Shown: positions 3,001-46,791 of the stretch, in pieces
How positions within the stretch are numbered: the stretch's first letter is position 1
How the letters are laid out: the number at the start of each line of letters is the position of its first letter
From: Marsupella aquatica
Lineage: Eukaryota; Plantae; Marchantiophyta
DNA length: 64,000 nucleotides
Reading direction: 5' to 3'
Assembly (NCBI GenBank): GCA_973895155.1
Contig: OZ316891.1
Location: 32,189,208-32,253,207, forward strand
The notes under the pieces: model-generated
Seen by the model: only the letters and a program-made list of their open reading frames with translations
Database searches by the model: none
Told to the model about the DNA's origin: nothing
Translations under genes and position numbers: made by a program

Positions 3001-3195
3001 TATACGAAATGGACTTCATATCTCTGTACAAGAGCACCTGTGTCGAACCCTGATATGACGGCAATAAGGAGCTTAGCAGAAGCAAGGTCTTATTTTCATC
3101 TTCAACTCATTTTCTCAGGTATGACGGATCCATCGCTAGACTATCAAATTCATCCAGGTGATCCTGCAGCTTGCTCTCTTCCTTGAGCCTAAACT
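1..3195 (-). mobile_element. Decayed Ty1/copia internal region (gag, protease, integrase, start of RT), cut by the window edge
   Basis: Broken ORFs in copia order: gag 2666-3085 (LLLLSSLLPSY), zinc knuckle CWKCGKPGHMKRDC 2136-2378, GAG-pre-integrase LWHFCLGHMSEKG 1574-1948, integrase YYITFIDDY 1226-1507, GYRLWDP 422-922. Colinear with the copia at 34148-40642. Confidence 0.93.
2439..2969. mobile_element. ~530-bp non-autonomous MITE-like insertion in copia gag
   Basis: Flanked by direct repeat TCATCAGA(CA) at 2431-2440 and 2970-2979. Inverted subterminal ATCAGTTATCAGTCATT (~2457-2473 and ~2945-2961). Removing it restores gag SSLLSDDAQK. Confidence 0.75.
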
Positions 3196-3716: not shown

Positions 3717-3789
3717 GATAAACCTAAATAAGCTTCAAGTAAGGTTAAAATGTTTTTAAATGGATCACTTTTCACTCCGTAGTTCCTTT

Positions 3790-4425
3790 TTACCTTTCCA
3801 CAACAATTGTAATGCACCTTCTCTTTCGGTTGGGAGTTACATCGTCTTCTGGAACAGAGCGCTTGCTCCTTTGGTACTCAAATCTCTTCCTGTCTGCATC
3901 CTTCCTCCTCTTCTCAAGAATGGAATCTTCCTGCAATTGGTCATCACAACCACAATTATCGTGCTCACCTTCATTTAGTGGATGAAGGTGGGCTGCATGC
4001 ACTTGAGTGCAAGTAGTTTGGGTGCTCTGCCTTGGCATTCGAATGTGGGCGTTGACCTGTGTTGGAATGCTTGCCCTTAGGGTCCTCCGCCTAGACTCTA
4101 AAATCTCAAAATGGCATGAATGCGCAGCCTCCTTGAGATTTTCACTTTCTTCTCGGGCTGTACGCAACATCACAGCGGCAGCTTCATGAACCTCACTAGT
4201 AATTCTCATTGCCTCTGATTGCCCAGCAGCCAATAACTCTCTTTGCCTTCGGTTGCCATCAATCACTAAATCTTGACATTGCTGCTTAGCAATCTCCATC
4301 ATGAGATTGCACTGTTGTTTTGTTTCATGAATCATTTCATCAGTGGGAACTGCCTGTTGACCACCTATGTGCTGACCGTTTGCTATTTGCTCTTGTCTTT
4401 TCAACTTGGATTTGCGATTTGCCAA
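3790..4425 (-). CDS. Unassigned 211-aa helical/coiled-coil ORF, probably a transposon fragment
   Basis: Open frame rich in Q/E/R/K, with a non-ATG start. Lies between TE junctions; no recognisable domain. Confidence 0.3.
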   Translation of the reverse strand: MANRKSKLKRQEQIANGQHIGGQQAVPTDEMIHETKQQCNLMMEIAKQQCQDLVIDGNRRQRELLAAGQSEAMRITSEVHEAAAVMLRTAREESENLKEAAHSCHFEILESRRRTLRASIPTQVNAHIRMPRQSTQTTCTQVHAAHLHPLNEGEHDNCGCDDQLQEDSILEKRRKDADRKRFEYQRSKRSVPEDDVTPNRKRRCITIVVER

Positions 4426-5287
4426 GTGATGGCTGCTAGTGAGTGATTTGAGTCAATGTTCAACCCTTTGATCCTCTTCAGACCTCCTTCGCACTCTTTC
4501 CCAAAGTTCCCGTCATCATCAGCAATGCTTCAGACCCTAATAAAACTTGCAGCTTCATTGCCCTCCTTTTTGCGCTCATTCCCCTTGCTCATGCTTGGAT
4601 TTGAATGTCATCCACGAAGCTTCAGACGCAAATTAAATCTGCAGCTTGATTGGCTGTTTGGGAGAGCTTCAGGTAAACCCTACCCTCCTTTTTGCATGAG
4701 CTTATTCCCCATGCTTTGAAGGCAACACAAATTAGAACATCTTGAATCTCACATCATCGCACGACTGCTCTTGAATGAATTCTCACAGAGGCATCCATCT
4801 TGTGCTTCACGAGGCTAAGTATGGACCCTTGCGCTCGACTTTGATACTTTCTGAACAAATTGTAGCTCGCGCCTAAGTGAGAAGGACTCTCACTCCTAGA
4901 TTTTGAAAATTCCCTACGAAACTAGTAGCGCCGACGACGTTCTCCCATAGAACTAATTGTCCAACTATAAATTACATGTCGGGACAAAAAATGAGTTTCC
5001 CCAAAGGACTTTGACTCCTTGTTTTTGAAAAGTCCTCCATGCAAAACTAATAGCGCCAGCACTCTCCTAGAGAACCAATTGTCCTTCACTCATAAATTAT
5101 AGTTGCAACAAGAAAGGGGTTACCTCAGGAGCTGAAATACTAATGAATGCATCTTATACGCATTTGATTTGTTTAAGTCCTTTTTGACTTTAGATGTGCT
5201 AATCTTGGCCGTTGACAGTCCTTTGGATTAGTGAAAGGACTGGAGACTTTTTGCCTCCTTTGGTAGTCCTCAATCATGCAATCCACC

Positions 5288-7502
5288 ATTAATGATGAAC
5301 ATTTTCCATGATTACTTGAGAAAGTTCATGGAAATCTTCATTGATGACTTTGCAGTATTCGGGAAGGCATCAACACATGCTAAATACCTAAGGAAGACCT
5401 TCATGAGATGCAGAGAGGTAGGTCTCAAGTTACACCCAGATAAATGTTTCTTTGGAGTAACAGAAGGTGTGCTGCTAGGTCACAAGGTATCAAAGAAGGG
5501 CATTGAGATTGACAAGCGTAAGCTAGCAGTGTGGCTTGATATCATGCAACCTAAGACATAAAGGATGTGAGATCCTTCTCTGGGTGCATTGGGTATTATC
5601 GCCGGTTCATCAAGGATTTTGCCAAGCTAGCTTTACCATTAACCAACATGCTCAAGGCAGGCGCAGACTTTGAACCCACACCAGAAAGAGTAACAGCTGT
5701 GGTGGAATTAAAGCAAAAGTTAGTGGAGGCCCCAGTCATGATAGCACCAGACTGGAACAATGATTTTCATGTCTTTGTAGATGTCTCAGGCTTCTGTATC
5801 GGCTCAGTACTAAGTCGGTTGGATGAGAAAGGAAGGGACCATCCCATATACTTTGCAAGCTGCAAGCTTGCTGATGCCAAACGGAACTACTCCACCACAG
5901 AAAGAGAAGCATTAGGAGTCATTTATTCATGTAAAAAGTTTAGGCATTATTTGCTAGGGTACAAAGTAATCTTTCATACCGATCATGAAAGTTTGAAGTA
6001 CCTAGTAAATAAGCTGGACCTTATAGGCAGGGTAGCAAGATGGATTTTGTTATTACAGGAATTGGACTACAAGCTAAAAATCAAGCCGGGAAAGCTACAC
6101 GCCAATGCCAACTTCTTTTCAAGGATCACAGGAGAACCTGCCACGGATTGCATCGATGATCGATTCCCCGACGAGGAGCTATTCGTTGTGGAAATAGCTG
6201 ATACATGGTACCCTGAGATTTTGCACTTTCTCAGTACGTCCAGATTACAGTCAGGGCTAACCCGAGAACAAGCCGCAGTCTTTCTGCGGAAGGTCAGACA
6301 ATATCAGTACATTCAGGGTGTACTACACAGGTATGGAATCAGCGGCACTATTCAAAGGTGGTTGGAGAAGGGAGAGGTAAAACGGTCTTACTGGCTATGC
6401 ATGGAGAGGAGGCCGGAGGACATTTTGCTCCAGTAACCACGTCTAAAAAGATATTAAATATCGGTTACTGGTGGCCCACCTTACACAAGGATGTCTATTA
6501 GTTTATCAAACAATGCAATCCTTGTCAGCAAGCGGGAGGACCAAGGGCGTCTACAAGACATCCACTGCATCCTATTCTACCTCTGGCACCATTTGAGAAG
6601 TGGGGTATTGATTACATTGGACCCCTAAAACCATTAACTCATCCTCGGAGGAACAAGTACATAATCCTGGCCACGGATTATGCAACTAAGTGGGTGGAGG
6701 CCAGGCTGACAATGAAGGATGATGCAATTACTACGGCTCGATTTATGTATGAGCAGATCTTCACCAGGTATGGAGCACCCCTAGACTTAGTTAGTGATGG
6801 AGGAACCCATTTTCTGAATGATATAATTAGTCGTTTAAATGAGCAGTATTTGGTTAGACATAGGTCTACTACTCCTTACCACCCAAAGGCAAATGGGTTG
6901 ACAGAACGAGCCAATGGGATTATAGGAAAAATATTAAACAAGACTGTAGCTTAGAACAAAATCGATTGGGATGATAAATTGTTTGCTACTGTTTTTGCTT
7001 ACAATTTAGCCTATAAATCCACTACTGGTCGTAAACCCTTTTTCTTAACCTTTGGGCAGGAAGCTCTGGTACCCATGCAACTTGAGATACCTACATTTCA
7101 AGTTACAATTGAGGAAAGAGTCTCAGAGGAGGAAAGCCTGAAAGAGCGAGAATATAGATTAGAAGCTTTAGAAGAGGCAAAAATGATTTCAGCCAAGAGA
7201 GTAGAATATAGACAGAATACCATGAAGCAACAGTATGATAAAAAGTTGAAACCAGTTAGTATTCACCCAGGAGATCTTGTATTACTTTATGATAGTAGAT
7301 ATAGTAGGTTCCCAGGTAAACTTTACACTCGCTGGTTAGGACCCTTCAGGGTAAACATGAAGTTCTCCAAATGAATGGCTCCATGCAATTGGCCAACATT
7401 ACTGGAGAAATATACCCAGTTTGCATTCATTACGACCGCCTCAAGAAATACTATATGGATGAAGTTGTTCATGAGGACGCTTCACAATTAAGTGGGGAGC
7501 TA
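5288..7502 (+). pseudogene. Ty3/gypsy family A pol remnant (RT end, RNase H, integrase)
   Basis: FMEIFIDDF, NYSTTEREALG, TTPYHPKANGLTER, KLYTRWLGPF, broken by stops and frameshifts. Closely similar to pol at 40643-42826. Confidence 0.95.
7487..7502 (+). other. Polypurine tract of gypsy A
   Basis: ATTAAGTGGGGAGCTA immediately precedes the LTR start TGTGATGCC. Same motif at 34068-34083 on the minus strand. Confidence 0.85.
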
Positions 7503-8950
7503 TGTGATGCCTAGCCAGGAATCACTAGGCCAGTTAAATGGTAAAATCAGGAGTGTTCCCTGGAAACACCTTAGTATAGTAATAAAAATATGGAAAATAT
7601 AAACAATTAAGGGTGACTATGGAACCCAAGCCAAGGCCGGAAGTAAGGACGCCGAGGGAGGGAACACGATTAGGGTTAGGGCGCGCTAAGTGTCGACGGC
7701 TAGGGGTCACCAACGGGAAGGAAGACCGGGCAATGAGGGGGGTAAGGACCGACCGCAAGGAATGGTGGCTCATTTGCAAGCACGAACTAAGCAGACGACT
7801 ACGGGAGGCCAACTACTGTCAGTTGCTTAGGCAAGCACTCAGGGTGGAGCAGATACCGGCTAATCAACGCAAGAAGGGTATGAGCAACGTCAATCAAGCT
7901 GCTAATTTTTGGGGATGCCTTTTCGAACGGGCAACTGAGTACATTGGGACCTACAAAGATGAAGATGAAGAGAGAGCAGCTAGAGAACGACAAGAGCTCG
8001 CTTGACTGCAGGAGCTGCAAAAGTCTGCCTTCTTAGGAGGAGAACTCATCAAGGCTGAATTCCTGTGGACACCTACTGGCGACGAGCTAGACGACCTTTT
8101 GTTTTGCAAGGACATAATCATCGGCATCCGCGAAGCCATCAAACGCTACAACGACATACACTGGGAGTTAAAAGGTAGCACGGAGGGGTGGACAAAGGCA
8201 ACCGTGCTAGGAGAAACATCCACGGCAGCCACTATGAAGAGGAAGGGGAACAACAACAAAGAAGCCACCCTTGCAAAAAGAACAAGGTTGGCGGCACCTA
8301 GGAAACCAGCACAGTAGGGAAGCAGGAGGCAGGCGGAAGCCGAAGAGGAGGAGGTCAACCCCATCAATGCCATTCCAACAAGAGATGATACCTGGACAGG
8401 CTGGGCGGCGACCCTCCCCAAGGAAGTGCAATTACACTTTGCACGTGAAGAGGATGCATGCTTTACGGCCATGCAAACTTGGAAATACCAGGGCTTCATG
8501 GCCGGATCCGGCTTGGAAGCCTTTGTAAGGTTGCCGTGGTTGAAGCCGGAGGTGCCGGATTCAGACTTACTAGAATTCGTGGGATCATGGGATCCCGAGA
8601 CCAATTCCACAAGGGTGTATGGGAAGGATTTCTATCTCACTCCTCGGGTGATTGCCAAAGTATTTGGCTTGCCGATGGGCAATAAGACCAAAGTAGATAC
8701 TAGGAAGACCTTGCTAGACAAGGAGTTCTGGTCATTTCCAGGGCCATCAACAAAGAATGGCTTCTTCCGAAACACTTGCACCAACCCGCACATAGGAGAG
8801 ATGATCAATTTCTTGCGGGTGTCCATGCATTGCAACTTGCCAAGGGCAGAGATCGGCAAGGCACAGGTCTATCTGGCGGAGAGGCTAGACCCAAGCCGGG
8901 ACTACAACGGGTACCTCCTCACCCAACTAAAGACAGAGCCATGGAGTACG
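7503..8950 (+). repeat. 3' LTR of gypsy A, first part, with the decayed LTR-borne ORF
   Basis: Starts TGTGATGCCTAG like the family B LTRs. ORF pieces 7613-8005, 8099-8317 and 8426-8950 match the N-terminal part of ORF 30305-33991. Confidence 0.9.
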
Positions 8951-9315
8951 ATCAGCCTATTCATTAAAAGTGTATTATTATTTGATTTATGTACATTTGG
9001 GCAGTGAAAAGTGTACTTTTGGGCTTGGAAAAGTGTACATTTGGCCAATGAAAAGTGTACATTTGGGGATAGAAAAGTTTACAATTGGCCTAAAGAGTGT
9101 ACATTTGGGCAATGAAAAGTGTAAATTTGAACATCAAAATAGATACATTTGGCTTTAAAAGTGTACATTTGAGTACATTTGGCCTAGAAAGTGTACATTT
9201 GAGTGCAAAATGCATACATTTGGCTTAACAAGTGTACATTTAAGTGCATTTGGTCTAGAAAGTGTAACTTTTAGTGCAATAAAGTGTACATTTGGCCTAA
9301 AAAGTGTACATTTGC
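8951..9315. repeat. Left TIR plus subterminal AAAGTGTACATTTG array
   Basis: TIR 8951-8976, then more than ten imperfect copies of a near-palindromic TGTACA-core motif at ~22-bp spacing. Confidence 0.9.
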
Positions 9316-9565
9316 CTACCAACTCTTATTATAATCATTTAAAAGAAAGGAATGAATAGAAAAACATTTTTAATTATGTAGAAAAAGCAAACATTCATAT
9401 TTATAATGATCAAAAGTTTAGAAAATGAGGAGATAGTATCACATTAAAACTATTAGAATAGTAAATAACTAGTACATAAATTACTATGTTTGAATGAGTG
9501 ACTATCTTAGTTACATAAAAACTAGTAACTATCTATTTAATTATTATAGCTTCTAACAACTAAGT

Positions 9566-12500
9566 CTACTTGTCCATCCTTTGAAGATAATTTTGGACAG
9601 TTTGTAGAACATTTCGAGGGATCTTCAAACCTCTGCCTGCCATGTTTTCTTCTTTCATTCCAGATTTAAAACCATACATTGCAGAATTTGCATACTGCCA
9701 ATGTTGAGTATTCTCACCAAACCCTGGATCTCGTTCCCATGTCTTAGTGGACATGAAACAATTTAGATACCGCGCACTCTCAGTCACATCAAGTTTACTA
9801 GAGTGTTTAGGCCTCCACCATTCAACTGGGAACATTGGAGCGTACTGTCGAGGCAGAGAAGGGTTTGTTGAAGATGTAGTTGGGACTTCATGCTTTGGGT
9901 CCACCAAACCCAAAGCTCTCACCAACCAGAAATGACCTCCACCATTTTTATTCTCCCAGTCATCCTCGGGTCGAAGAAATACAAAGTTTCCTTCACAAAT
10001 ATCTTGTAAAGGAATCCATCGTCCTTGTTCTCTCTCAGCTCGAGATCCAACAAATGGTGCTGCCTGATCTTCCATCTCTTCCAAGACCTCATTTTGAAGA
10101 GCCGTCATCGTCTGCATTCTCCTCATCTTCACTTGGAGGACCACTTTGTTCCGGTTGGTTGACCTTGTAACCAGTGCCGTGGTTAGTCTTAGGCCAAAAT
10201 CTGTTTTCCAAGGGAAATTGAGTACTTCCCTCCCCTTCTAGTGCGAGCCCATTTGTCAACAACTCCACAATTCTCTCCCAATATTTCACAAGAGGAAATC
10301 TTTCCTTATATGCTATAGATGTCTCATCAGTGCAACTCCTTCTCAAAAAATCAAGGTACTTGTTAAGAAATGGGATAATCTCTTCAGATTTTTTGTGTAT
10401 CTCTCCAATGGATTTAGCTAAGGGCTCTCCACTTGGTAAAAGAAGAGAATTTGTTGTCAGATCTGTTGCCCAAATGCACCTTCCACCAAGTGGAGCCCAA
10501 GCTTGCTTTACATGGGACTTATACTGAAATATTGGTACATTATCTCTCATAGAGAAAAGAAATGATACAGGTTTTGAGTGACCTTGAATATCTTTCACCT
10601 TGAAAGTTTGAAGATATTCTTTGTAAGATGCAACTTCTTGTATCAATCTGGGAACTGGATGAATGCTCTCGCATTCCCATACCTCTGCCATAAGAGCAAG
10701 GAGGGTTGCAACTTCTTTGTGCTGAACTTGATATGATACCTTTGAAAAGAGTGCATCAACATCTTCATGCGTATGACCAACCATTAGAAAAGACATTTGA
10801 ACAGTTTCAAATACTCCTCTACTCACAAGCTCGCTACAAAATGCCATGACAGTCTGGTTTTTGTTGTCCTTTGCTGAATTATCCATCTGCAATGTTAGGT
10901 GCCTTGGCAAGGGCTTGAACGATGGACTGCCTTGCTCTCCTTGCATGTCTTCTCCATCATCCTCATCTTGCTGGTTTGGGACGGTCTCAGTCCGACTCTC
11001 AGCTCCATCTTCAGAACCAATATACCTATTCACCGGTATATTCTTTGGTTCCAAATAACCCGTCAAAAATGCTTCAAAGTCAAGTAGGGCTTGAAAGAAA
11101 GGTCTGTGAGGTTCCCAATGAAGGCCATCCAACATGTCACCTGTCTTGTCTCCATTGTACTCTTCAAGGTCTCGAAGACACTTAGCCAAGGATGTCACCG
11201 TGAAATCGGCATCTCCTGGCCAAAGGCCAGTGACACTAAAGTGTGCATAAACTCCTGGATCCCTCCCGTGGGTCAACATCCCTGTGAGAGCAATAGGTAG
11301 CGGCATTCCATGACCCGAAAGAGATTTAGGAGTACTAACCATTTTTGGAATCCATGTCTTTGCTTGATCCATCTTGTCGTGAATAATGCAAAGATATTCT
11401 CCTGGGTGTTGTTTGGCCATCACTCGATGAGCGTAGTAAACATATCTACGTGACATTTGCTCACGAAGATGTTGCGCTCGTTTTTCTTCAATTTCAGCAC
11501 GTTCTTTTTTCCTTCTTTCTCGCATCAAACTGTCTTTGTATTCACAACAAAGAGTACACTTGGCAAATGCACCATCTTTATGAAAACTGAAGTTTGCAAA
11601 TGAGTTACTCCAGATCTTGTAGAGAGTATTCTCTGTGACAGGAGGAAGCCCTTCTTCCTTCATCTTTGTTCTCACATCTTCCAGAATCTCTAGCTTTTTG
11701 TAACACGCCGGAAGACGGTACTCAATAGAGTCTGTCCCATGTGCCCCTCCATAAGGCATATGAGGCATGGGCTCTGCATTTCGAGTCAAAAAAGCCTCCA
11801 ACAGAGCTCGTGCATGCAAGGTATTTGCCCTTGTTTTCATCAAGCCCGTATTGCCATGGAACCCAATTTTGCAACCCTCCACATATCTCCTTTTGTAATC
11901 ATAATATTTGGTGTGGCTAAAACCGTGGATAATTGCAAATGCATGTCTGCATACGACCATACCCTTAAGAACATGGTGTCCCTTATCACGAACATCATCC
12001 TCTCTATAGTGAAAGAGGTTGAAAATGTGTGACGTTTTTGACTCGCTTGACATCCCATGAAATTCCATCCTAATATCTTCGATGTTTTCCCTTGGCATAA
12101 TGAGACAACATTTTTGCTTGCAACAATTTTCTCTTTTCACGTCATCAATTGACGCCTCTGTTGTTTTTGAAATTGCCTTGGTTTCCAACAACCTCCTCTT
12201 CTTTTCATTTGGATCTACTTGATTCCTCTTGTTAAAATTGTAGGGCCTTGAACGCAGTACTCCTCTATCACTTACATCCGCATTGAGTTCATCCCTATCC
12301 ATTGAGTCCATCCTTTCAGAACCTTCCACCAAAATATCTGACAAAAATTTTCCATTTGCAACTAGTTTTGTTGAATCAATCCGCCATCGAATCAAACTCA
12401 CTACTCCCTTGTGGATGTTGGGAAAGTATTGTGCTGCCACGACATCTTTCACAGCAATCCCAACATGGTCATCACCAAGAATTTCATCATCAACTGCCGC

Positions 12501-13349
12501 CATCACTTGAGGGACAGTGATCGTTCCCGTGGCAACCATTTTGGTTCGATCCAAACCAGTGTAGAGTTCAACCAACTCTGACATCCAGTTTGCCCGATGA
12601 AAATAGTCACACTTAGTGTCTGTGGTGTTTGCCGAACAAGACTGTGAAACAAAATCCGCCTTGTCCTTCTGCTTCTTAGAGGAAGATTTGTTGCTCCCAT
12701 CGATATCAACATTCCATACTTTATTGTGGACGTCAGCCACATCCCATAGAACCCAGGAGCCCTTTGCCTCTTCAATTGTTGCAGCTCCACCATGTGCGTA
12801 AGGTAAAGTCTTACTACCATGAATCACATCTGTGATTTTTACACTAACCCGAGACTCACCGAGTAATATGTTATGACATCTCTCCATTGGATCAGTGTTG
12901 AAAACAACTCCAAAGGCCACACAATGGCCAGAGATAAACATTTCAACCTCATCACCTGGCCTTAGGGTGGTCGAAGCATCCTCCTGTACATTTGCAGAAT
13001 TATGGATGTTGTTATCTTTTCGAGTCGAACAACTACCAATACTGATGCGTTTTTGAGTAATCTTATCCGCAGATCGATATGCACATGACATATCCCAAAT
13101 GACACATGAGTCAATGGCATCATGAAGATTTTCCGCCCTAGGCATTGGAAAAGGGAGCTTCCTGGTCTCACCAAAGGCCTTCTCAATGAGAACCCCAATT
13201 CGATTCTCTCCCAGCACAATATTTTGAACACTCTCTTGCGGATCTGTCTTTTGAACTGTCCCATTTCCAACGTCGTAACCATCCATTGTCAAGGTCACAT
13301 CATCGCCCCTAGAAAACCTTTGAGACATCCTTTTCCTATTATCCTGCAC
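9566..13349 (-). CDS. Transposase, Sola-like / DUF7869-type DDD, with one probable frameshift near 10100
   Basis: 1086-aa ORF with IIHDKMDQ, LQMDNSAKDNKN and FLMVGHTHEDVDALFS catalytic-type motifs and Cys motifs (CCKQKC, VCRHAF, CTLC). First ATG at 13328. ORF 9566-10144 overlaps in another frame and looks like the C-terminus. Confidence 0.85.
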
Positions 13350-13394
13350 ACTGAAAAAAATGGATTACAACCAAAGTCATGCAAATTTTGATTC

Positions 13395-14155
13395 AGACTG
13401 CGATCCTCAAAGTCTGGATTTGGACTACGATCCTTCAATTCTGGATTTGGACCGGGACCATCCGAGTCCGGATTTGGACTACGATCCTCTGATTCTGGAT
13501 TTGGACTAGGACCATCCGAGTCCGGATTTTGACCGGGACCATCCAAGTCCGGATTTGGACTGCAATCCTCTGAGTCTAGATTTGGACTACGATTCTCCGA
13601 TTATGGATTTGGATTGGGACCATCCGAGTCCGGATTTGGACTGGAATCCTCCGAGTCTAGATTTGGAGTACGATCCTCCGATTCTGGATTTGGACTGGGA
13701 CCATCCCAGTCCAAAGTTGGACTAGGACCATCCCAATCCAAACTTGGACTCGGACCATCCCAATCCAAACTAGGACTTGGACCATCCAAGTCCAAACTTG
13801 GACTCGGACCATCCCAATCCAAAGTTGGACTCGGACCATCCTAATCCAAACTTGGACTCGGACCATCCCAATCCAAACTAGGACTTGGACCATCCAAGTC
13901 CAAACTTGGACTCGGACCATCCCAATCCAAAGTTGGACTTGAACCATCCTAATCCAAACTTGGACTCGGACCATCCCAATCCAAACTAGGACTTGGACCA
14001 TCCAAGTCCAAACTTGGACTCGGACCATCCCAATCCAAACTAGGACTTGGACCATCCAAGTTTAAACTTGGACTCGGACCATCCCAATCCAAAGTTGGAC
14101 TCGGATGATCCTAGTCCACATCTGAATCCAAACTTGGACTAGGACCATCCTAGAC
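13395..14155. repeat. 27-bp tandem hairpin-unit array upstream of the transposase
   Basis: Unit ~TTGGACTCGGACCATCCCAATCCAAAC. Gives 9-aa-period shadow ORFs (DWDGPSPSL). Confidence 0.92.
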
Positions 14156-14839
14156 CAACCCATAATGTAACGGGAGATAAACTTCAAACATTTTAAGCTA
14201 AGAAAATTCCAAATTTAGGAAGACTCCGTATTTTACGGATCTCCCTATATGGTGTAGCCTAAAGTTTGCGTGGTCTTAAGGTAGACCCTAATGTCTACAT
14301 ACAGTTTCATGAAATAATGAAACCTAGCCTTATATTTGAATGCGTTAACCTTATACTCACCTTAGTATTAAGATCTGGTAGAATATGAATATCACATCCA
14401 AGGGGGATACATTGTTGTCTGTAGATTGGTAAAAACTTTCCCAGAACCCTGAAATACAAGCTATATGCCACTAAATCTTGGGAGTAAAAAACAAACTGAA
14501 CCCTAAACCACACATGTCTATAAAAGATAAACTGAGAGGACCCCAAAAGTCAAGAAGCTGGCTAAGCTGACCCATTGAAGGTAAGTGGCTCAATACATAA
14601 CACTTTAAGAGAAACTCCGGATTACATGGAGCTTAGATTTGGGAAACTAGAACAAGAATGAGCTCCGAAGTGGGCGTCTCCCGAAATATACCCTTTGCTC
14701 GAGTCGGCTCAAACGGAAATCGCGTGAAGATAAGGGTTGAGTACCCCTTCACCTTAGCTTGCAGCACACCTTATCTTCACGAGCCTAATTGCGCGGGGAC
14801 TACCGTGCAAGGCTGTTAGGTAGGCAGGACATCAAGGAA

Positions 14840-15220
14840 GGAGGCCCGTATGCAGGGTGCGGGCAACGGGCCGTACGCAGGAGCAAGCCGTACGCACTAT
14901 CAGGCCGTACGTAGGAGAAGGAGGCAACCGGCCGTACGCAGGCCGGGGTGAGGCAGGAGGGGGTAAAGGGACGGAGAGGTCCAGCCAGGACCTCATTCTC
15001 ATTCTCACTCTTTCGCTCCTCACTCTGCTCACGCTCTCCACTCTCCGCCTCCGCTCTCTGCTCTTTGCCTTCACTCGCTCGCTCTCCTCGCTCTTTGCTC
15101 TCCGCTCTCTCTCCGCCTCCCCGCCTCTGCCTGCTTCCGCCTCCACCTCCATTCTTTTTCATTGCCCTAAATCGGACGCCTGCTAAGAAGCCACGTGTCA
15201 CTCTGCCACGTGTCAGAAAG
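14840..15220. promoter_or_regulatory. Putative bidirectional promoter between transposase and cargo gene
   Basis: GC-rich island with ~5 GCCGTACG-type repeats (14845-14942), a CT-rich tract (~14990-15155), and two GCCACGTGTCA G-box/ABRE-like motifs (15190-15215) just before ATG 15221. Confidence 0.5.
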
Positions 15221-18200
15221 ATGGAAGCGAATCGCGTCCTTGTGAAGTCCTCCGTGGAAGCAACAGAGGAGTTTGACCTCTCCTCTATGAGCGACAGTGT
15301 AGAACTGGCACTTGAAGACTCCAAACAATTTCAATCAAGAATCCCTAGTAAGTATCCATCACCTATCCTCCCTAAGTCTTAGAGGACTGGGACCATCCGA
15401 GTCCAAAGTTGGACTCGGATGATCCCAATCCAAACTTGGACTCGGACCATCCCAATCCGAACTTGGACTCAGATGATCCTAATCCAAACATGGACTCGGA
15501 TGATCCCAATCCAAAGTTGGACTCGGATGATCCCAGTCCAAAGTTGGACTCGGATGATCCCAATCCAAAGTTGGACTCGGACCATCCCAATCCGAACTTG
15601 GACTCAGATGATCCTAATTCAAACGTGGACTCGGATGATCCCAATCCAAACTTGGACTCGGATGATCCTAATCCATCCAGGAGATTGAATCTCGATTGTA
15701 GGAGCAAGACTAAAACCATCTCAAGTTGGACTAGGACCATCCTAATCCAACAAGAGTTATTCAAATGTTTTAAACTTAATAAGTCTAACATGGATGATGT
15801 TTTTATGATGCAGGGAGCGATCTTGTTGGTTTCAAACCCGCGATTGCACCGACCGACTGCCGGGACGGATTCTTACTAGATGAGAGATCCCCAGGCTTCC
15901 GATGGGGGCTTGAGTTCTCAAGAACCCTGCTTAATAATGAAGTGCCATCAAGCACGATTGAACCTGTTTTGACCTTAAAGTGCAGAGCAAATGATAGCCT
16001 GACTTTGGTTTGCGGACCTGTGGTCTCTGTTGGCATTGGAGGGAGAGGGATGAATTCGGTCATTCTGGAGATGCACGATAGGTCATGCTGGGTTAAAGTT
16101 AACCTTATGTCAAAGGCATACTCCTCAGAATTCAATGTCGAATGGCACGCAAGTGGTGAATTGAGCGTTTTGTCAATGGGATTTTTTCCAAAGACATATG
16201 ACACAAAGAAGTTGGTCATCGGGGTAACTGGTATGCTTCCAGTCGACATTATGTATGGGTTTCAATATTTGAAACTCAACATGATGAAGCACCAAGGCAA
16301 TTTCTCTTTTGCAACTACTTGGACGTTAAGCAATTTACTTGAGAAAGTTGGATTGTTATCGTTGGAGTCAGAGGAGCCTGGTGTTTTAATTGATAAGGAT
16401 GTTGCATTTGATCCCAACTTTGATTTAGTCAAAGCAAAGCAATGGATAGAATCTTTGTCAAAGATGAGAAACCTTCCAACGGTGAATACAAACCCTGTGC
16501 CCGAGAAGGCGCCAGAGAAAGCTCCAGAACCTACAACAGAGACCGCGGGAACTACAGCAGCAACCTCTCAAAGAGCAGTGGGAAAACAAAAACAAAGCCA
16601 AAGGAAACCTCCGGTTGAAAAGAAACTTCCAGTTGAGAAGCTGGTTGAGAAGCCGAGTACGAGAAGCCGAGTTCAGAAGCCAGTTGAGAAGCCGAGTACG
16701 AGAAGCCAAGTTGAGAAGCCAGTTGAGAAGAAACGTCCGGTTGAGAAGCCAAGTGCAAGTGAAAAGAGGCCAAGACAAAAGAAGAAACAGAAAATTGACA
16801 GTGTCATCATGGATGACACTATAGAAAACCTGACAGTGCATTCACAAGATATGGACGAGCAGTTGGACGCTCCTGAGGAGAAGAAGGTCTTAGAAGGTAA
16901 TGAGGTACTACAACAAATGGAGCAATATTATACGTTTGGGATCAATTCGATATTTTCTATTCCCGTAGAGAGTATTTTCCCTGCGTCGGCAAGACTCTGT
17001 TACAGAATGTTGAATGCAGACCATGTAAAGGAGGTGGCCAATTCCATGATAAGAAATCCGGGGCATGAACCACACATAGCAGACTTGATTCCTTACACTA
17101 CAAAACATAGAAACCTAATGCAATATGACAACACGGAATCAGATAGGAGGGACTTTGTAGCAGCCGTGAAAAAGGGGGAGGTTCAATTCCTTGCCATTAG
17201 CGGTCAACATTCAGCCAGAGCAGCCAGATGGATTCGAGAATGGGCAAACAAGGATGCCAAGCTAACAGCATTGGCAAAAAAGCTGGAATTTCGAAAGTCA
17301 AGAATATTATCTCATCGAACACCATCATCAATATTAGTTGAGCATTCAATGCGATCTAATGCTATCAATAGCACGATGGTGTTTCAGTCATGCTTCAAAG
17401 ATACAGTCGTTCATGCTAGGCGGCAATTTGTGGAATGTGGAAAACCTAGCCGGCCAAAACATGGGGACAACAAAACAAACGCTCAAGACAATCAAAAATT
17501 TCAGGTATGAAGTGTTACTGCTTGATTGGTACAATACCGTAGACTCTCCATGTGTGATTACAATTGAGATGGTAGTCTTTGACCACAAAGCTTCAAGTTT
17601 GCTTTGGATTGAGATGGTCCGAGTCCAAATGGATACATTCACATTCAGTAGAATATTTCCACTGATATCGTCTAGTTTTGTGTTGGACTGGGATGGTCCC
17701 AGTCCAAATGGATTCATGCACATTCAATAGACTATTTCCACTGATATTGTCTAGTTTTGTGTTGGACTGGGATGGTCCCAGTCCAAATGGATTCATGCAC
17801 ATTCAGTAGAATATTTCTCCACTGATACCGTCTAGTTTTGTTTTGGATTGGGATGGTCCTAGTCCAAACTAAATCATGCACATTCAATATAATATTTCCA
17901 CTGATACTGTCTACTTCTGTGTTGGACTGGGATGGTCTCACTCCGCACCTGAGTGCTTTCAAACAATTGAGTTATGGAGAACTAACAGACTTTCCTTTGC
18001 AATTGTAGGATTGGTTGGCTCTTGCAAGAATGACCATGGGAAGGAAAGATTGGCGTAATGTCTACTGGTTACTGTTTGCCGACAATGCTCTTTTTGATTT
18101 ATGGAGTTTGGTATGCCAATTGTGGTTGGATGGGAAACTTCCCGATGGAGCTGGTGTAGAAGGAAATGAGAAGTCTGAAAAAGCAATTACTGTTGCCATG

Positions 18201-20381
18201 TTTCGTTGTTTTGATGGTGAGTTGATCTCACAACGAGACATCACAAGAATACTGACGCGGGTGAAGTCAGGAAAGGTATTGCTAAAGAAAGATGCCTCTA
18301 ATAAATCAGACATGCCATCTATAGAGGAGTTGGCCAAAGATGTGAAGATCGTGCGGAAACTCAAGTCCCTTATTGAAGACTACTATTGCACCAAGGATGC
18401 GGTGAATTTCCCGACAAATACTAATTGGGGGAAAGTAGTTGAGGTTCTTCCTACGCTAGCAATTGATTCAGAGTTCAACAGGTGTCGAAGAGCCGCTGGC
18501 GAGGTCTATCTTGCCAACCTTTTAAAGCCAAATCATACGCGGGAGAGCGCAATCTTGCCGACGGCATTGGTATTCCGCCTAGATGATATATACTGCCAGA
18601 GATTTGGCGGAGGATCACGTTCTCGGACCCTACCATGGGTTACATTTTTTAGCGACAATCTCATGAAGACCATTGATCCAGAGTCATTGCAAGAAGCTCC
18701 TCCGACCTGCCCTCTTGCCATTGTTGATTTTAGCCGGCTTCCACAAAAACAGTGGACTGAAGCAGAGATTCTTGTTCTCTTTGAATACATTGTGGAGCTT
18801 CCACAAAATCCCACGATTGTGGTGACGATAACAGTTCATCCTGGACAACTTGCACTGAATGTCCATGGTGCCCTTCGTAAATTGGGACAAGAGAAAGCTT
18901 TGACCATTCACATTGAGTATGGGAGTTATTCACGAGATGATCAACCGCACCCTCATGACTCATGTTGGGGTGGAGGGATTGAAGAAGTTATCTTTGCAGG
19001 GATTTCTCGAGATGAAGACGTCAATTGGAATGAAGTTTTCAAGCCCAACTATCCAAAGCCAAAATTCTTGTATACTTCAAAGGATGTTGATTATGAAGTA
19101 TGCAAGATCGACAAGGGAAAGGGGAAAGCTAAGGAATCAGATGAGGGGACACAAAACGACGACCTAAAAGTGGTTTTGGACCCGGAAGAGGCCGTCAAGA
19201 TTATGAATATGGCCCCTCGATTTGAGACAGTTGGTAGTCGCGGAGGATGGGTTAATCCTCATGCCAAACCCACGCGGATGATCCGAAGGATTATTGAATC
19301 CTTATCAGAACCGGGAGATTTGGTTCTAGATTTTTTCTCCGGTGGCCAAGTCATGAAGACATCATTTTTTTGCGATAGGGAATGCTTTGTTTATTGTGAC
19401 TCTCAGTCCGAGAGGCATTTTGTGGAAGCTTTTGCTTCCTACCTTTGCGAGAGAGTTCCCTCACTTAAAGCCCATTGTGAATCACTTGCTGAAAATTCTT
19501 GACAATGGGCTACCACTATTGCGGCTGTAGCTGTCGCTGTTGAATCCGACGGTTCTGAGTCTGAAGATGTTGCTGACAAAGTGGCTAAAGGCGTAGAGGC
19601 ATCAGACGAGGCATATGTCAAAAATTTGGATGACCGTGTTGGTCAAGGTGAGCCTTACGATGTAGATGATGATATTGGACTTGCACCAAACCGTTCATCT
19701 GGTTTAGATGACATCCCTCCGGGGCCCCATGAAGTTCAAGTTGATGATAACTTGGACAAGGATGATCCCAATCCAACAACGCCGGGAGGACAGATGGAGC
19801 AACTGGAAGGAGCAAGGGTTGATATGTTTGATCATCTTTCTTCAACCAATCTGATCAACGAAGGCGCAACGAGGCTTGGAGATTCAAATGAAGCTGAAAC
19901 TAACGAATTGACTCGTGGGGAAGCCGGCGGATTGCCTGACATTCCCATCAATCCAGGAGGAAATGCATCAACGGCTGCTGACAACCAGGCAGGTGCTTCA
20001 ACTTGTCCTGACACACTCTTTTCAGCTTCTGATGACAAATTGGTGTTCGTTCGTTCACACTCGAGGAGTCCTGTTGTCCTTCCGTTCTCAAAAAAGAAAG
20101 GGAATAGAGTTGGATCAACTGGATGGAGGTCATTGGAACGCGACGCACGATGTTACGTGTGGAAAAGTGGGCCAAATCGAGGCCAAGAAATATCATTGGA
20201 AGCTGCTCCTTCAATTCTCAATAAGGAGGAGTATAAGAGGGGAGAATTGGGGTTCATAACTCCTGTTTGGACTTCTCCTTATTGGGTAGAACAAAGTACT
20301 TCAGATGTCAATTTTGAAATCCAACAGGAGCTTGGTGCTGACATGATTATTGATGAATACGGATCTCTTATTTCGGAATGA
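15221..20381 (+). CDS. Spliced cargo gene with ParB/Srx-like and DNA N6A/N4C methyltransferase-like domains (~1396 codons, one internal TGA at 19500)
   Basis: Exons 15221-15347, 15814-17504 and 18009-20381 join in frame via GTAAGT..CTAAC..CAG (phase 1) and GTATGA..CTAAC..TAG (phase 0). Motifs LNADHVKEVANSM...FLAISGQHS and NPHAKPTRMIRRIIESLSEPGDLVLDFFSGG. ORF 19581-20381 is in frame beyond the TGA. Confidence 0.75.
15383..15750. repeat. 27-bp tandem array inside predicted intron 1 (15348-15813)
   Basis: Unit ~TTGGACTCGGATGATCCCAATCCAAAC, same family as 13395-14155. Confidence 0.9.
17600..17942. repeat. ~80-bp tandem array inside predicted intron 2 (17505-18008)
   Basis: About four units, each containing TTGGACTGGGATGGTCCCAGTCCAA, the reverse complement of the 27-bp motif. 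Confidence 0.88.
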
Positions 20382-20523
20382 AATTCAGCCTTTGACTTTC
20401 TATTTATTCATATCAATCTAAAATACTTCTCGGTCTCACAGAATGGGCTCACCAATTAAAGTCTCCATATCCGTCTACACATTGTGAGGCTTCTAAAAAC
20501 GGTATGTAGGTTAATTTTCGTTT

Positions 20524-21657
20524 TTGTCAGCCATTGTGTTGTATTTTTGGACTGAGACAATCCTAATCCAAAGTTCACTTTTGGTCTTTTCTCTGAGAAT
20601 GGTGTTTGGTGCACTTGCAGAATCGAGACCTGGTCCCGTCAAGCGGAAGTTGCTGATTTTGGACCTTAATAAAATACTTTGGGATTCTATTGAATTCCAA
20701 AACAAGGGCACATCCAGGAATATTGTCACCTCAAGTGGAGTGCATTGGGATAGAAAAAATGGTATTAGTCGCATGTATACAGAACGACCAGGGCTCCATG
20801 AGTTTCTAAAGTTGGTTTTTGACAGATTTGATGTTGCAATTTGGACTTGTGCTGGGGTAGAACGAACAGTGAAAATGCTGAACATGATGTTCACTGTTGA
20901 GGAGCGGTTGAAACTTAAGTTTGTATTCACACAGGTGGAAGCCTTTGACACAGGCATTCAAAGGCGTGACATTACAAACGGAAAGGCAAATGTGCTACTG
21001 AAGGATTTTCAGGTGGTATGGAATGCATTTGGAAATCTATATGATGAAACCAACACCCTCCTTGTGGATGACTCCCCCCTTAAGGCATTTGCCAACCCAG
21101 ACATGACCGGATTATTTCCAGTGCCCTACACGCATGCCAATCGTGGAGATAATTTTCTTCTAGCAATTCTTTGGCCATGTCTTGAGAAACTATCACATGC
21201 AAGTGACATTCGATGCTATCTTCTTCTCAACTCTCCAAAGTGGTCTCTTTTGCACATGAAGAGAGACAAGGCAAAAAATGAGATTACTTATGATCAACTT
21301 AGCAAGAGATTTGCAGCAAAAATTTGGAAGTCACAGTTTACACATAGTGTGTTGGACCTCAACAGTAATGAGATCCCTTGGAATGTAAAGCACCGTATAT
21401 GTAGTTTATGTCCTGAGGTGGAACTTGACAATGCACTTGTCAACTCACTTGCTAAATCATTTTTAGGAAAGGACTATTCAGGTCCATATAGAGAAAATCC
21501 CAGACACTTTTTGCGGGAGATTATAGCCATTAGGAACAACACCACCAGATTTCAACTCCCTGAAAATAAAGTGAGTTGCAACCGTGACAATAGGGTAGAT
21601 AGGAAAGGAGACAGGGGCACATGCTCAAATACACATTGTAGGGAGCACTTGGTTTAG
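20524..21657 (+). CDS. FCP1/NIF-like HAD-family phosphatase domain protein (probable true exon start 20621)
   Basis: KLLILDLNKILW, RPGLHEFLKLVFDRFDVAIWT, LLKDF and NTLLVDDSPLK match the NIF/FCP1 pattern, with DLN in place of DxD. Cys/His-rich tail. Confidence 0.85.
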   Translation: MSAIVLYFWTETILIQSSLLVFSLRMVFGALAESRPGPVKRKLLILDLNKILWDSIEFQNKGTSRNIVTSSGVHWDRKNGISRMYTERPGLHEFLKLVFDRFDVAIWTCAGVERTVKMLNMMFTVEERLKLKFVFTQVEAFDTGIQRRDITNGKANVLLKDFQVVWNAFGNLYDETNTLLVDDSPLKAFANPDMTGLFPVPYTHANRGDNFLLAILWPCLEKLSHASDIRCYLLLNSPKWSLLHMKRDKAKNEITYDQLSKRFAAKIWKSQFTHSVLDLNSNEIPWNVKHRICSLCPEVELDNALVNSLAKSFLGKDYSGPYRENPRHFLREIIAIRNNTTRFQLPENKVSCNRDNRVDRKGDRGTCSNTHCREHLV

Positions 21658-21899
21658 ATATTTAATTGACTTGTGTTAAGCCCCTTGGATAGTACTAGAA
21701 ACATGTTCGTATTCAATGTAAATTTGCAGATAATTGTATAAAGATATTTTATAATCTATTTGGAATGATGTTATTTTGTTCACAGAATATCTGGTCCTTA
21801 AATGGGGATGAAATAACTTTATAAATTTTTATCCTCCATTTCTATGTGAGTTATTAAATAATATAATATGTATTATTTATTAATATAATATTAATGTGA

Positions 21900-22039
21900 T
21901 TTGGCCTATAAAGTGTACATTTAGAGACACAAAAGTGTACATTTGGGTGTCTTGAAGTGTACATTTGGGGACATGAAAGTGTACATTTCAAGACTCATTT
22001 GTGAACAAAAGAAAATACACTTTTAATGAATAGGTTGAT
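21900..22039. repeat. Right subterminal AAGTGTACATTT copies plus right TIR
   Basis: Four motif copies at ~21910-21988; TIR 22014-22039. Confidence 0.9.
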
Positions 22040-22850
22040 TACGGGAGATGTGTGGGGAACTTGCGCTCAGCATCTTTGAGGAGGAGTTGGAGCAGGGACC
22101 CTTTTTCCAGAGGGAGATGTTGGAGAAGCGCCGATCAGAAGAAGCGGTGGCTTTGGAAAGAAGCAAGAAGGACGAGGTCATTTGTCGGCTTAGGGCAAGG
22201 GAAGCCAAGGTAGAAGACCTGAAGGCGGCCAAGAAAACCCAAGATGAACTGCGGATTAAGCGGCATGAGCTAAACATCATGCAGGGGCAATTGGATACCG
22301 CACAGTCTGATAATTGGATTATCGAGAATAAACTGACTCGGACCCAAGGAGAGTTGGCCGAAGCAATCAAGGAGAGGGAGAAGTGGAAGCGAGAGCTAAG
22401 GGACGCAAAGGAGGCCCACATAGCAGCCAACAACTGGGCCATGGCGGAGACCCAGAGAAGGGAGAGGGCGTTGAAGGGGGAGCTCAAGGATATCCTTGAG
22501 CAGAAGGAGGCCGAGTTAGGGAAATCCTATCAGACGATTATTATGCTGCAACAGGAGCTTGCATCCCTGACGGCCAGCTTCAAGGCTGACCTCCGTGAGA
22601 AAGATGACCAGCTCGACTTGACTTATGCCAAGATGAATAAAATGGAGTCTGAGGTCGTAACGGAGCTCAACAAGGAGCTAAGAGCAACCCAGGAGGAGAG
22701 GGCTACCTTAAAGAAGGAGTTGGAGGCAGCCCACAAGGAATTGGAGGAAGCCCAGAAGGAGCTGGAAGAGGCGCGCAAGGACCTGGACGAAGTGCAGGAG
22801 GAGTTGGAGGAAAGCACGTGGAAGATGGAGAACTTACAGCGGCGAGCCAA
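22040..22850 (+). repeat. 3' LTR of gypsy A, continuation (coiled-coil part of the LTR ORF)
   Basis: MCGELALSIFEEELEQGPFF...MENLQRRA matches ORF 30305-33991. Cut at 22850 by the family C LTR. Confidence 0.9.
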
Positions 22851-24348
22851 TGTCACGTCCCTAACCTGGGTCTTAAATCCAGTTTAGTTTCATGGCGCAA
22901 CCTCGACCACCAGTAGGGGTGAGGGTTTGGGCAAGGAGGTGTGTAGTGGCCCCGATTAGCCCTAAGTCGGGCTAAGTTGATATACTTACTGGTATAACAC
23001 TTACGCAATTTGTACTAGTCATAGGTATATTTATTTTCCATTGCTGGAATTTTCCCTCAATTAGTGACTCGGACTAACTCCCGGCTTGGGGCTTTTCAAG
23101 CCATCGACGTGACAGAACCTTGTGACATGCAATGGGTGGCAATCCCTACCATTAGTCCGCACCCGGTACGTCCCTTAAAATGGCGCCTTTGCCCAGACAA
23201 AGCATACACACAACACCAGTTACTTGCGGAAACATTAGAGGGAAAAGGCTACATTTACTCAGCGAAGCATCAGTTTACATGGTTGACTCGACTTCTAAGG
23301 GGGTCAGCAGGCCCAACGGCAGTCGATGCCCAGTCTCTACAAAGCCCCGCCTCACACTTGCCCAGCAAGCTCGACTCTGGCTCTCACTCCTTGGTGCGCT
23401 CTGACCCTACTCAGGCCGGGACTCCCCGTGTCTCGCCTTTTCTTCTGCTGAGATAACTAAGCCTTCTCCCCCTTCCATGGCGGAAGGGGAAGCCTAAATA
23501 CTACAGTTGCAAAAGGGAACCAGAGGATACTACCTTCCGGGATACTACCTACTGACTAACTACCCTCTGACTAACTGGCCGTGCTGTACTGACTGGTTGA
23601 CCATTGACGACAAGAGTGCTAACCGGAATGGCAGCAGCTAAGCCTACTGACAAAATCTAGTCCGTTGATGGACTCCATCCTACGCTGGCGGCTCCTAACT
23701 GATTTGGTCCTAATTCTTCCTACTACCACTAATCGGCGCCTAATGACAGCTATTCTGTCTTTACGCTTAACCAAAAGATGTCGCTGACTCAATTGCCTTG
23801 CGTGGCGCTTGCTTCCACCCTTTGCTAACCACCCCTTACGTGTGTGCTGTGGTTGGACCTGGGTTTGTCCCCCTGTCGGGGCAAGACCTCAAGCCGCCTT
23901 GATCAGAGGTGGGCCCAGGTTTTCCCCGCTGGAGGACAAGCAGGGCAATGCAATCCTGCAAGGCCTTGTTGTCCCGCACCGCCTCCTTCGCCTTGTTTGC
24001 AGCTTCATCGGCCTCTGTCTGGAGCCGCGCTACCTCCAGCTTGAGCTGGTTAATGGAGTTGCAATGGGTCTGGTCCTGTGCCAGCAATTTATCCCGTTCG
24101 GCGGAGAGACTAGCTACCTGCTGAGCTGCCTGTAGGAACTGTTTGTTGAGGTCGGTCAGGCTGGTAACCCGAGCCAAAGATTCTGAGCGCAATTGAAGCA
24201 CGGAATCGTCCAGCTTTTTGAGATCTACTTGCGCTCCGCTCAACTCCTGTGTTAGTCCGTCCCTCTGTTCGACGGTGCGGACTAACTCCTCACGATGGGT
24301 AGTGGCCTCCTCCTCGAGGTGCTCTACCAGCATTTGGAGGCGTTGTCC
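22851..24348 (-). repeat. Gypsy family C 3' LTR, distal part
   Basis: 22851 onward closely matches 63247-64000 (TGTCACGTCCCTAACCTGGG...). Contains coiled-coil ORF end 23836-24333. Confidence 0.9.
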
Positions 24349-46787: not shown

Positions 46788-46791
46788 AAAA

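Follow-up and report, generated by a model that had tools for sequence, protein, structure and literature searches.

Sola DNA transposons carry a DDD transposase between short terminal inverted repeats (TIRs) and are flanked by a 4-bp target-site duplication (TSD). They are found in moss, and some exceed 15 kb (PMC10741241); the target AWWT is given as a hallmark of the Sola1 subgroup in PMC3845634. VANC, the accessory protein of VANDAL transposons, is directed to tandem motifs that are specific to each family and lie within introns and non-coding sequence of the element (PMC5735166). ParB-Tls loci are named as a known source of eukaryotic methyltransferases (MTases) in PMC4738411; active beta-class N4C enzymes are known in Marchantia and bdelloids, and mutation of the SPPY motif abolishes N4CMT activity (PMC8885841).

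In a window of 64,000 nucleotides (the whole stretch of DNA analysed) from the liverwort Marsupella aquatica, we observe a Sola-type transposon of 13,089 bp (positions 8951-22039) in a broken copy; its lineage has a conserved two-gene cargo, which we tentatively interpret as an element-specific DNA-binding helper sustaining expression in the VANDAL/VANC manner.

Element boundaries and insertion site

The termini of the element are formed by the following features.

8947..8950, no strand: left target-site duplication TACG (sequence and empty-site comparison)
8951..8976, plus strand: left terminal inverted repeat, 26 bp (repeat and pattern searches)
8986..9314, plus strand: left subterminal array, period about 22 bp, core AAAGTGTACATTT (repeat families)
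21892..22010, plus strand: right subterminal array, 22-bp period (repeat analysis)
22014..22039, minus strand: right terminal inverted repeat (repeat and pattern searches)
22040..22043, no strand: right target-site duplication TACG (sequence and empty-site comparison)

The TIRs agree at 25/26 positions and can be extended to 34 nt at 88%; their pattern has two matches across the window, with 0.00 expected by chance. The boundaries were checked against empty sites: the host element has two further copies in the window, where the insertion point reads as a single TATG, and the joints 8950->22043/22045 are present in contigs of three of the four public runs, the short sides being 22-24 letters. 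As the empty site holds a single 4-mer, an alternative terminus position or TSD length was rejected. The 26-bp TIRs, the 4-bp TSD and the subterminal arrays near both ends, all proposed in an earlier sequence-only reading, are borne out; the left array likely consists of transposase-binding sites. The same reading had described a clean insertion into an LTR ORF, which does not hold, as the host copy lacks about 935 nt, approximately 20 nt to the left of the insertion, compared to its two window relatives, and its reading frame is interrupted, no continuous frame crossing the empty site.

Transposase

9566..13364, minus strand: Sola-type DDD transposase (PF25273/DUF7869), frameshifted (Pfam, alignment, contig comparison)

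The match to PF25273 (E 2e-43) is above the Pfam cut-off, and the motifs HDKMD, DN..K.NKN and GHTH.D.D are invariant. D666, D828 and D870 (P0001 numbering), retained in at least 16 of the 17 aligned proteins, likely form the DDD triad, judging from their conservation. In the present copy the frame is shifted near 10110, one base at this position being missing from all aligned contigs of four runs. We found no relative of solved structure by sequence with the transposase alignment, and no relatives of the transposase in the viral contigs searched.

The element combines the Sola features, that is, a DDD-type transposase, a 4-bp TSD and terminal inverted repeats, and among related loci with both ends matching 4-bp TSDs were observed in 3/6 (2/5 distinct). 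The closest subgroup is most likely Sola1: a comparison by eye with the Sola1 profile in PMC5751038 places DNSAKDNKN of the transposase at profile positions 82-102 (core DncagqNkn), the agreement covering two of about five profile parts, good at the second Asp and loose at the first. Whereas the Sola1 hallmark target is AWWT, the present element provides one site, TACG; unlike it, the TSDs of related loci are AT-rich, and so are 28 flanks of these loci, with A at position 3 in 20 and T at position 4 in 17.

Cargo gene 1

The cargo occupies 15221-21657, head-to-head with the transposase, so that the proposed arrangement of a DDD transposase facing about 6.4 kb of cargo is confirmed.

15221..15347, plus strand: predicted exon 1 of cargo gene 1 (ATG; donor GTAAGT; splice prediction)
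15814..17504, plus strand: predicted exon 2, with a PH-like domain, a disordered basic linker and a ParB/Srx-like domain with SGQHS (fold prediction, relatives)
18009..20381, plus strand: predicted exon 3, with a helical region, a beta-class amino-MTase fold, an acidic linker and a conserved C-terminal tail (Pfam, fold prediction, alignments)

The predicted spliced gene has 1,396 codons, and its product is predicted to consist of a PH-like domain, a ParB/Srx-like domain, a helical region and a beta-class amino-methyltransferase domain. Support for the PH-like domain is weak (Z ~5), and a search of the ESM Atlas with the N-terminal domain yielded no usable match. For the exon 2 model, the best seven of 48,161 structure chains are proteins of the ParB/Srx fold, with middling Z of 5.5-7.5; in Foldseek this fold ranks top both in PDB (best E 5.8e-3) and among viral models (best E 4e-4), the scores again being middling. 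Thus, the ParB fold suggested by the sequence-only reading was recovered, while Pfam and NCBIfam gave no match to any ParB family. The domain has 84 sequence relatives, its column identity is 0.38 vs 0.14 in the linker, and R, G, H, N and Q residues are near-invariant. CTP-binding ParB proteins, the clamps of ParABS systems, have a canonical arginine-patch motif, GxRR. This patch is absent here, and SGQHS is present instead, in 48/84 matches, with close variants in 12 and the search pattern unmatched in 24. The fusion of the ParB-like and MTase-like parts holds independently of the splice model, because three Riccia proteins (P0139, P0147 and P0160) carry both.

Exon 3 matches PF01555 (E 1.3e-6, above the cut-off), and the best 20 of 48,161 chains for its model are all amino-MTases, the closest being M.MboIIA (1g60; Z 16.2, rmsd 3.0, 182 aligned), with the bdelloid N4CMT at Z 13.8. 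The permuted beta-class Rossmann fold is complete, the motif IV region preceding motif I, and HHalign gives a probability of 97-98% to five phage MTases. Five relatives share 31-45% identity with exon 3 over at least 95% of it; no longer homologues were found for its alignment (1,433-4,090 aa covered). The MTase fold suggested by the sequence-only reading thus has matches in structure comparison. However, the accompanying idea of a DNA-marking kit is weakened, since motif IV, [DNS]PP[YFW], is absent in all ten proteins covering the position, in both HHalign registers, vs its presence in 5/5 phage controls; the position reads DFSR, DFGR, DFTR, DLAR, DLTH, DLIA or DFAR, never DPPY or SPPY. The motif I region retains D(F/L)FSGG, a variant of DxFxGSG, in 9/9 covering proteins, with a conserved K upstream, and the acidic residue following the next strand is variable. 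The domain is likely catalytically dead. No relatives of the MTase part were found in the viral contigs or prokaryotic genomes searched, and phage tblastn gave only weak matches to motif I, none of the 20 listed out of 85 records having an E below 0.01; these searches recovered no close prokaryotic or viral locus.

Cargo gene 2

20599..21657, plus strand: cargo gene 2, NIF/FCP1-like HAD protein, 352 aa (Pfam, alignment)

This protein matches PF03031 over the whole profile length (E 1.8e-15; 57.4 bits vs the cut-off of 21.8), in agreement with the FCP1-phosphatase-like cargo claimed earlier, and also matches UBLCP1 (E 1.2e-9). Motif I of HAD phosphatases is DxDx(T/V). Here it is DLNKIL, the first Asp being kept and the second replaced by Asn; the later T, K and DD residues are retained.

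Internal palindrome arrays

The 25-bp palindrome TTGGAYTNGGANNNTCCNARTCCAA has 39 matches in the window, with 0.02 expected, all of them within the element at 13447-20571.

13447..14158, no strand: 21 copies of the palindrome, 27-bp period (repeat search)
15382..15750, no strand: 12 copies inside the first predicted intron of cargo gene 1 (motif search)
17604..17867, no strand: four copies with a period of 79 bp inside the second predicted intron of cargo gene 1 (motif and repeat search)
20547..20571, no strand: a single copy just before the phosphatase-like ORF (motif search)

The copies avoid the predicted coding exons in 38 of 39 cases, and most lie in predicted introns. The 21-copy array adjoins the long transposase ORF on its 5' side, in what is probably also an intron. 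Arrays of another palindrome core adjoin the cargo of two related loci, L011 and L026. Thus, as with VANC targets, the motif arrays are situated in non-coding parts of the element, and the motif differs in L011 and L026.

Recurrence and decay of the cargo

The Riccia gene model R1sor_025532 (P0175) contains ParB-like, MTase-like and FCP1-like parts in the same order as the window. Riccia has at least 12 cargo gene models, dispersed and often shortened, and in this genome alone the ParB-like domain falls into four or more deep lineages; by locus tags, one of 12 cargo models is within five tags of any of 81 transposase models (008624 and 008628), the chance P being 0.32. In metagenomes, cargo pieces adjoin related transposases in four distinct loci, in one of them within TIRs with a TSD: this is the 11.3-kb element of L011/L012 (TSD ATAT), whose NIF ORFs and transposase lie head-to-head. 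L049, L058 and L026 have ParB-like, NIF-like, or ParB-like, helical and NIF-like pieces upstream of the transposase, the cargo of L026 being in the same orientation as the transposase. Overall, cargo was detected in 5/30 loci (four distinct) with at least 7 kb upstream, the full intact set in none of them, and a Pfam scan of 85 flank ORFs revealed cargo-type domains in L011 only. No cargo was detected in L062 (5.4 kb, TIRs and TSD) or L050 (4.6 kb, TIRs). When the region is divided into 30 bins, every bin, those of the cargo among them, has many contigs aligned to it in four runs, and these contigs fall into several identity classes. The cargo being found in other genomes, a one-off capture is not borne out, and folds and recurrence together support the suggested large Sola-type lineage with its own ParB-like, MTase-like and FCP1-like cargo.

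The present copy is broken by the transposase frameshift and by an in-frame premature TGA at 19500-19502 in exon 3. The sequence-only reading mentions neither lesion, nor does it mention the joining of the ParB-like and MTase-like parts in one spliced gene, the missing motif IV or the internal palindromes. The 40 variants listed, beside 1,509 further ones, include 25 coding variants: five synonymous and ten non-synonymous in the cargo, nine and one, respectively, in the transposase. Many of these are private to the present decaying copy, and this small set shows no sign of recent purifying selection on the cargo.

Possible functions of the cargo

In the scenario that we tentatively prefer, the ParB-helical-MTase unit would derive from a prokaryotic or phage ParB-methylase fusion and would have lost methyl transfer, retaining the cofactor pocket and DNA binding. 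The cargo protein would load on the 25-bp palindromes ahead of and within each gene and, together with the FCP1-like protein, would promote transcription of the element against host silencing, while the transposase would bind the TIRs and the 22-bp subterminal arrays and perform cut and paste. An anti-silencing or self-recognition role of the cargo, as surmised in the sequence-only reading, is plausible. Two considerations run counter to a helper: the palindromes could be bound by the N-terminal domains of the transposase itself instead, and tandem arrays can draw silencing in. A more far-reaching variant, which we consider rather unlikely, is that Sola elements of seed-free plants have taken over a bacterial ParB/parS-like system. 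A ParB-like clamp fused to an MTase fold would load on the element-specific palindromes, extend along the whole element or mark it and, helped by a CTD-type phosphatase, overcome host silencing; if so, no eukaryotic transposon before it would have had a nucleotide-driven clamp or a 4mC/6mA self mark of its own.

ParB loads at palindromic parS sites. The cargo might also be a transposition cofactor, with a ParB-like clamp on the internal palindromes looping or compacting an 11-16-kb element and pairing its distant ends, chromatin marks not being the target. The ParB/Srx fold with its near-invariant residues, the scatter of palindromic sites over the interior and the short length (4.6-5.4 kb) of TIR-bounded relatives without cargo would fit such a clamp, but it is made improbable by SGQHS in place of the arginine patch and by the FCP1-like gene, which it leaves unexplained; moreover, the argument from length is circular, as it is from the cargo that the element gains its length. 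Still more doubtful is an active, atypical amino-methyltransferase that would label the palindromes with 4mC or 6mA and so mark them as self. The complete beta-class fold, the retained D(F/L)FSGG with its upstream K and the active N4C enzymes of Marchantia and bdelloids speak for it; against it are the loss of DPPY/SPPY, given the effect of the SPPY mutation on N4CMT, and the variable acidic residue.

At about the same low level of credence we place an old passenger that brings the element no present benefit, or whose targets are RNA or proteins without relation to the palindromes; slippage would then have produced the arrays as a by-product. It agrees with the neutral appearance of recent variants, the disappearance of the cargo from many copies and the altered catalytic motifs in all three enzyme-like domains, but open frames that remain long at an identity of 25-60% between genomes, invariant motifs and retained gene order require long purifying selection, and the deep ParB-like lineages in Riccia also argue against it. 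NIF-family genes are common in eukaryotes, and the cargo genes have spliceosomal-type introns; nevertheless, a single capture of ordinary host genes by the present copy is largely refuted, and hence highly improbable, in view of the coverage of all bins by many contigs, the dispersed Riccia models and the linkage of cargo to transposases in unrelated loci.

Comparison with known systems

The DDD transposase, 4-bp TSD and short TIRs are common to Sola elements and the present one, which differs from them in its conserved cargo of about 6.4 kb and in the palindrome arrays of its interior. The cargo may account for the great length of some Sola elements, and long moss Sola entries in Repbase may hold the same cargo, unannotated. 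A literature search, whose scope lay outside Repbase and the original Sola paper (Bao et al. 2009), retrieved no description of Sola cargo of this kind and no mention of DUF7869.

Like phage ParB-methylase fusions (ParB-terminase loci), cargo gene 1 has a ParB-like domain on the N-terminal side of a beta-class MTase fold, the fold class of M.MboIIA, M.RsrI, M.PvuII and CcrM, but differs in being eukaryotic and spliced, in the added PH-like domain and in the loss of motif IV. Marchantia DN4MT1 and bdelloid N4CMT have the same fold class and also a bacterial origin; these, however, are host genes with intact SPPY, acting on genes or against transposable elements, whereas the cargo MTase is transposon-borne and lacks the motif. 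It would be a further, so far unlisted, acquisition of the amino-MTase fold by land plants.

Fungal TET/JBP elements, SET-encoding HarbingerS/MuDR and DIRS1 are likewise lineages retaining an epigenetic-type enzyme domain, the DIRS1 MTase being likely inactive, but they belong to other transposase or retroelement classes and carry other cargo. The main text of the TET-element paper does not contain the word Sola, and the compared text of papers on chromatin-enzyme transposons names no FCP1-like passenger. Even if inert, the cargo would be an old, widespread, unannotated gene family confusing bryophyte gene annotation.

Pfam scans gave no VANC match. VANDAL/VANC of Arabidopsis MuDR resembles the present element in combining a transposon-borne accessory gene with family-specific tandem motif arrays, but belongs to another superfamily, while the present cargo, known from sequence and models, is built of ParB-like, MTase-like and HAD folds. 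Should the protein and its motif vary together between families, programmable epigenetic tools may be possible, and a named protein with a named 25-bp target permits direct testing in liverwort or moss. After VANDAL/VANC, to which it is unrelated, the element offers a second candidate for a plant transposon that counters silencing in a sequence-specific way, with a kit assembled from prokaryotic parts.

Boundaries and insertion site

The element spans 8951-22039 (13,089 bp). The 26-bp terminal inverted repeats (TIRs) and the 4-bp target-site duplication (TSD) TACG, both claimed in the sequence-only reading, were recovered: 25 of 26 bases are identical between the two ends, the TIR pattern has only two matches in the whole window (0.00 expected), and TACG is present on both sides of the element. 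The host retroelement has two further copies in the window, and both carry a single TATG at the insertion point. Contigs from three of four public runs join 8950 to 22043/22045, the sides of these joints being short. In one contig (X2, record 15), the alignment ends exactly at 22039, and the 176 letters beyond it do not fit, suggesting that the element also occupies another site. The insertion into the LTR ORF, claimed to be clean, proved otherwise: compared with the two window copies, the host copy is decayed, with approximately 935 nt absent about 20 nt left of the insertion (8927-8928), and no reading frame runs through the empty site of the host element.

The remainder of the window is mostly LTR-retroelement sequence. 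A 5.6-kb block present twice (28480-34067 and 45888-51450; 99.1% identity) has a long ORF (1,233 and 922 aa) without an informative Pfam match; this ORF is homologous to the one split by the Sola element, and is likely to be an additional gene carried by a Ty3-like retroelement. A perfect 426-bp direct repeat (34145-34570 and 40219-40644), flanking a copia-type gag-pol with stops, likely represents the LTRs of an element that inserted very recently.

Transposase

The minus-strand transposase ORF matches PF25273 (E 2e-43), and conserved motifs indicate D666, D828 and D870 as the likely catalytic triad; with the TIRs and the 4-bp TSD, this agrees with the proposed Sola-like DDD type. The second-Asp motif agrees by eye with the compared part of the published Sola1 profile, Sola1 being a candidate subgroup. 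Of its 76 relatives, 39 are named Riccia models, and the nearest named homologues belong to two liverworts, Calypogeia fissa and Riccia sorocarpa, so that the host is probably a seed-free land plant. The homologues carry on into a second frame near 10110, where one base is missing from all aligned contigs of all four public runs; hence either the frame break is peculiar to this copy or the assembly is wrong at this point. The N-terminus (12200-13364, minus strand) comprises repeated domains, with PF26133 in many homologues, which could bind palindromes or subterminal arrays. Metagenome loci L001, L002 and L004 and proteins P0072 and P0075 represent a more distant lineage whose transposase frames are long and near-intact (two clusters, of 83 and 26 members); no cargo was detected in the 10 kb upstream of the L004 transposase.

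Cargo genes and palindromes

Between the divergent genes lies a GC- and CT-rich stretch (14800-15220), which is probably either a promoter acting in both directions or a 5' UTR region. The cargo genes are as follows.

Predicted cargo genes (gene 1 with GT-AG introns)
15221-15347, plus strand: cargo gene 1, exon 1
15814-17504, plus strand: cargo gene 1, exon 2
18009-20381, plus strand: cargo gene 1, exon 3
20599-21657, plus strand: cargo gene 2, ORF spanning the full NIF profile

The spliced model of gene 1 comprises 1,396 codons and is interrupted by a single stop (19500-19502), beyond which all five exon 3 homologues extend, reaching the same C-terminal motif. The structure model of exon 2 (mean pLDDT 79) has two ordered parts. 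For the C-terminal one, ParB/Srx folds are the top seven of 48,161 chains (Z 5.5-7.5) and take the top Foldseek ranks in the PDB and viral libraries, with weak E-values; the N-terminal one weakly matches PH-like folds (Z about 5). The exon 3 model (mean pLDDT 64) matches beta-class amino-methyltransferases, best M.MboIIA (Z 16.2, rmsd 3.0, 182 aligned). Both folds of the claimed ParB and DNA-methyltransferase-like cargo were matched, but none of the ten proteins covering the position has the catalytic [DNS]PP[YFW] motif, under either register of the alignment against five phage enzymes (DPPY in 5/5). The motif I region is conserved in 9/9 proteins.

Gene 2 covers the NIF profile in full, as expected for the FCP1-like phosphatase claimed, and its best solved relative is UBLCP1; its motif I is altered, reading DLNKIL with the second Asp of the canonical motif lost.

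A 25-bp palindrome occurs in 39 copies, all within the element (0.02 expected). The largest group, 21 copies, lies directly 5' of the transposase ORF; predicted cargo introns 1 and 2 contain 12 and 4, respectively, and single copies lie in exon 3 and ahead of the phosphatase ORF. Arrays with a different palindrome core adjoin the cargo of metagenome loci L011 and L026.

Recurrence of the cargo

Four public runs, produced by two studies, cover all 30 bins of region 8000-23000 with contigs ranging from >99% to <90% identity; as contig depth is not copy number, we take this coverage only to mean that several related versions exist. Riccia has 12 dispersed gene models that resemble the ParB-like part and form at least four deep lineages. 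Three models join it to a helical or MTase part, and R1sor_025532 additionally holds an FCP1-like domain (37% identical to that of the window), its three cargo domains following the window's order. The proximity of cargo and transposase locus tags in Riccia is at chance level.

From 455 transposase relatives in metagenomes, 80 loci were kept, 30 of them with at least 7 kb upstream. Cargo was seen beside the transposase in five of the 30, four being distinct, since L011 and L012 share 99.7% identity. The L011 element, 11.3 kb long, has TIRs, the TSD ATAT and NIF ORFs head-to-head with the transposase, an arrangement shared by a ParB-like remnant in L049 (E 1e-5) and a NIF-like remnant in L058; L026 retains, in this order, remnants of the ParB-like, helical and NIF-like parts, in the same orientation as the transposase. 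No cargo was found in the other 25 loci, the copies being heavily decayed. The short TIR-bounded loci L050 and L062 look like deletion derivatives. The single TIR-bounded element of L011 holds about three NIF/FCP1-like remnants in tandem (2300-5400), hence the phosphatase gene can be amplified. In locus L066, a Sola-type transposase remnant lies about 5 kb away from a YEATS-domain ORF (4442-4834; E 1e-28), which is probably a neighbouring host gene.

Possible roles of the cargo

The cargo is clearly conserved at depth: per-column identity reaches 0.38 in the ParB-like domain and 0.20 in the PH-like part, against 0.14 in the linker. Recent variation does not support conservation, the sample being small: the 40 rows listed hold 25 coding variants, of which 5 synonymous and 10 non-synonymous changes fall in the cargo, and 9 and 1, respectively, in the transposase. 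Many cargo variant rows are private to the window copy.

We tentatively favour a putative non-catalytic, element-specific DNA-binding helper, which would load on the palindromes and keep the element transcribed together with the FCP1-like protein. A cofactor pairing the element ends is a less likely role. We consider it rather improbable that the MTase-like part, with its motif I region retained and its catalytic motif absent, is an atypical active methylase; equally doubtful is an inert passenger, which the recent variants favour and the deep conservation opposes. With cargo at four distinct loci, a one-off capture is very improbable.

Comparison with known systems

CTP-binding ParB carries an arginine patch, whereas the ParB-like domain here has SGQHS (48 of 84 matches). 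The parts of the element are of known kinds: a Sola transposase, the phage-type ParB-methylase architecture (PMC4738411), and eukaryotic N4C methylases and TE-borne chromatin enzymes, both already described in the literature. Our literature search, made on paper listings and selected passages, yielded no description of this combination of Sola and cargo; the original Sola paper or Repbase may already list such long elements. According to a review (PMC10741241), Sola elements have a DDD transposase and 4-bp TSDs, are mostly 2-9 kb long, with some >15 kb, and occur in moss. The TSD TACG departs from the AWWT preference given for Sola1 in PMC3845634. The palindrome layout, in turn, matches that reported in PMC5735166 for VANC, the anti-silencing protein of Arabidopsis VANDAL elements: its targets are tandem motifs specific to each family, located in introns and other non-coding parts.
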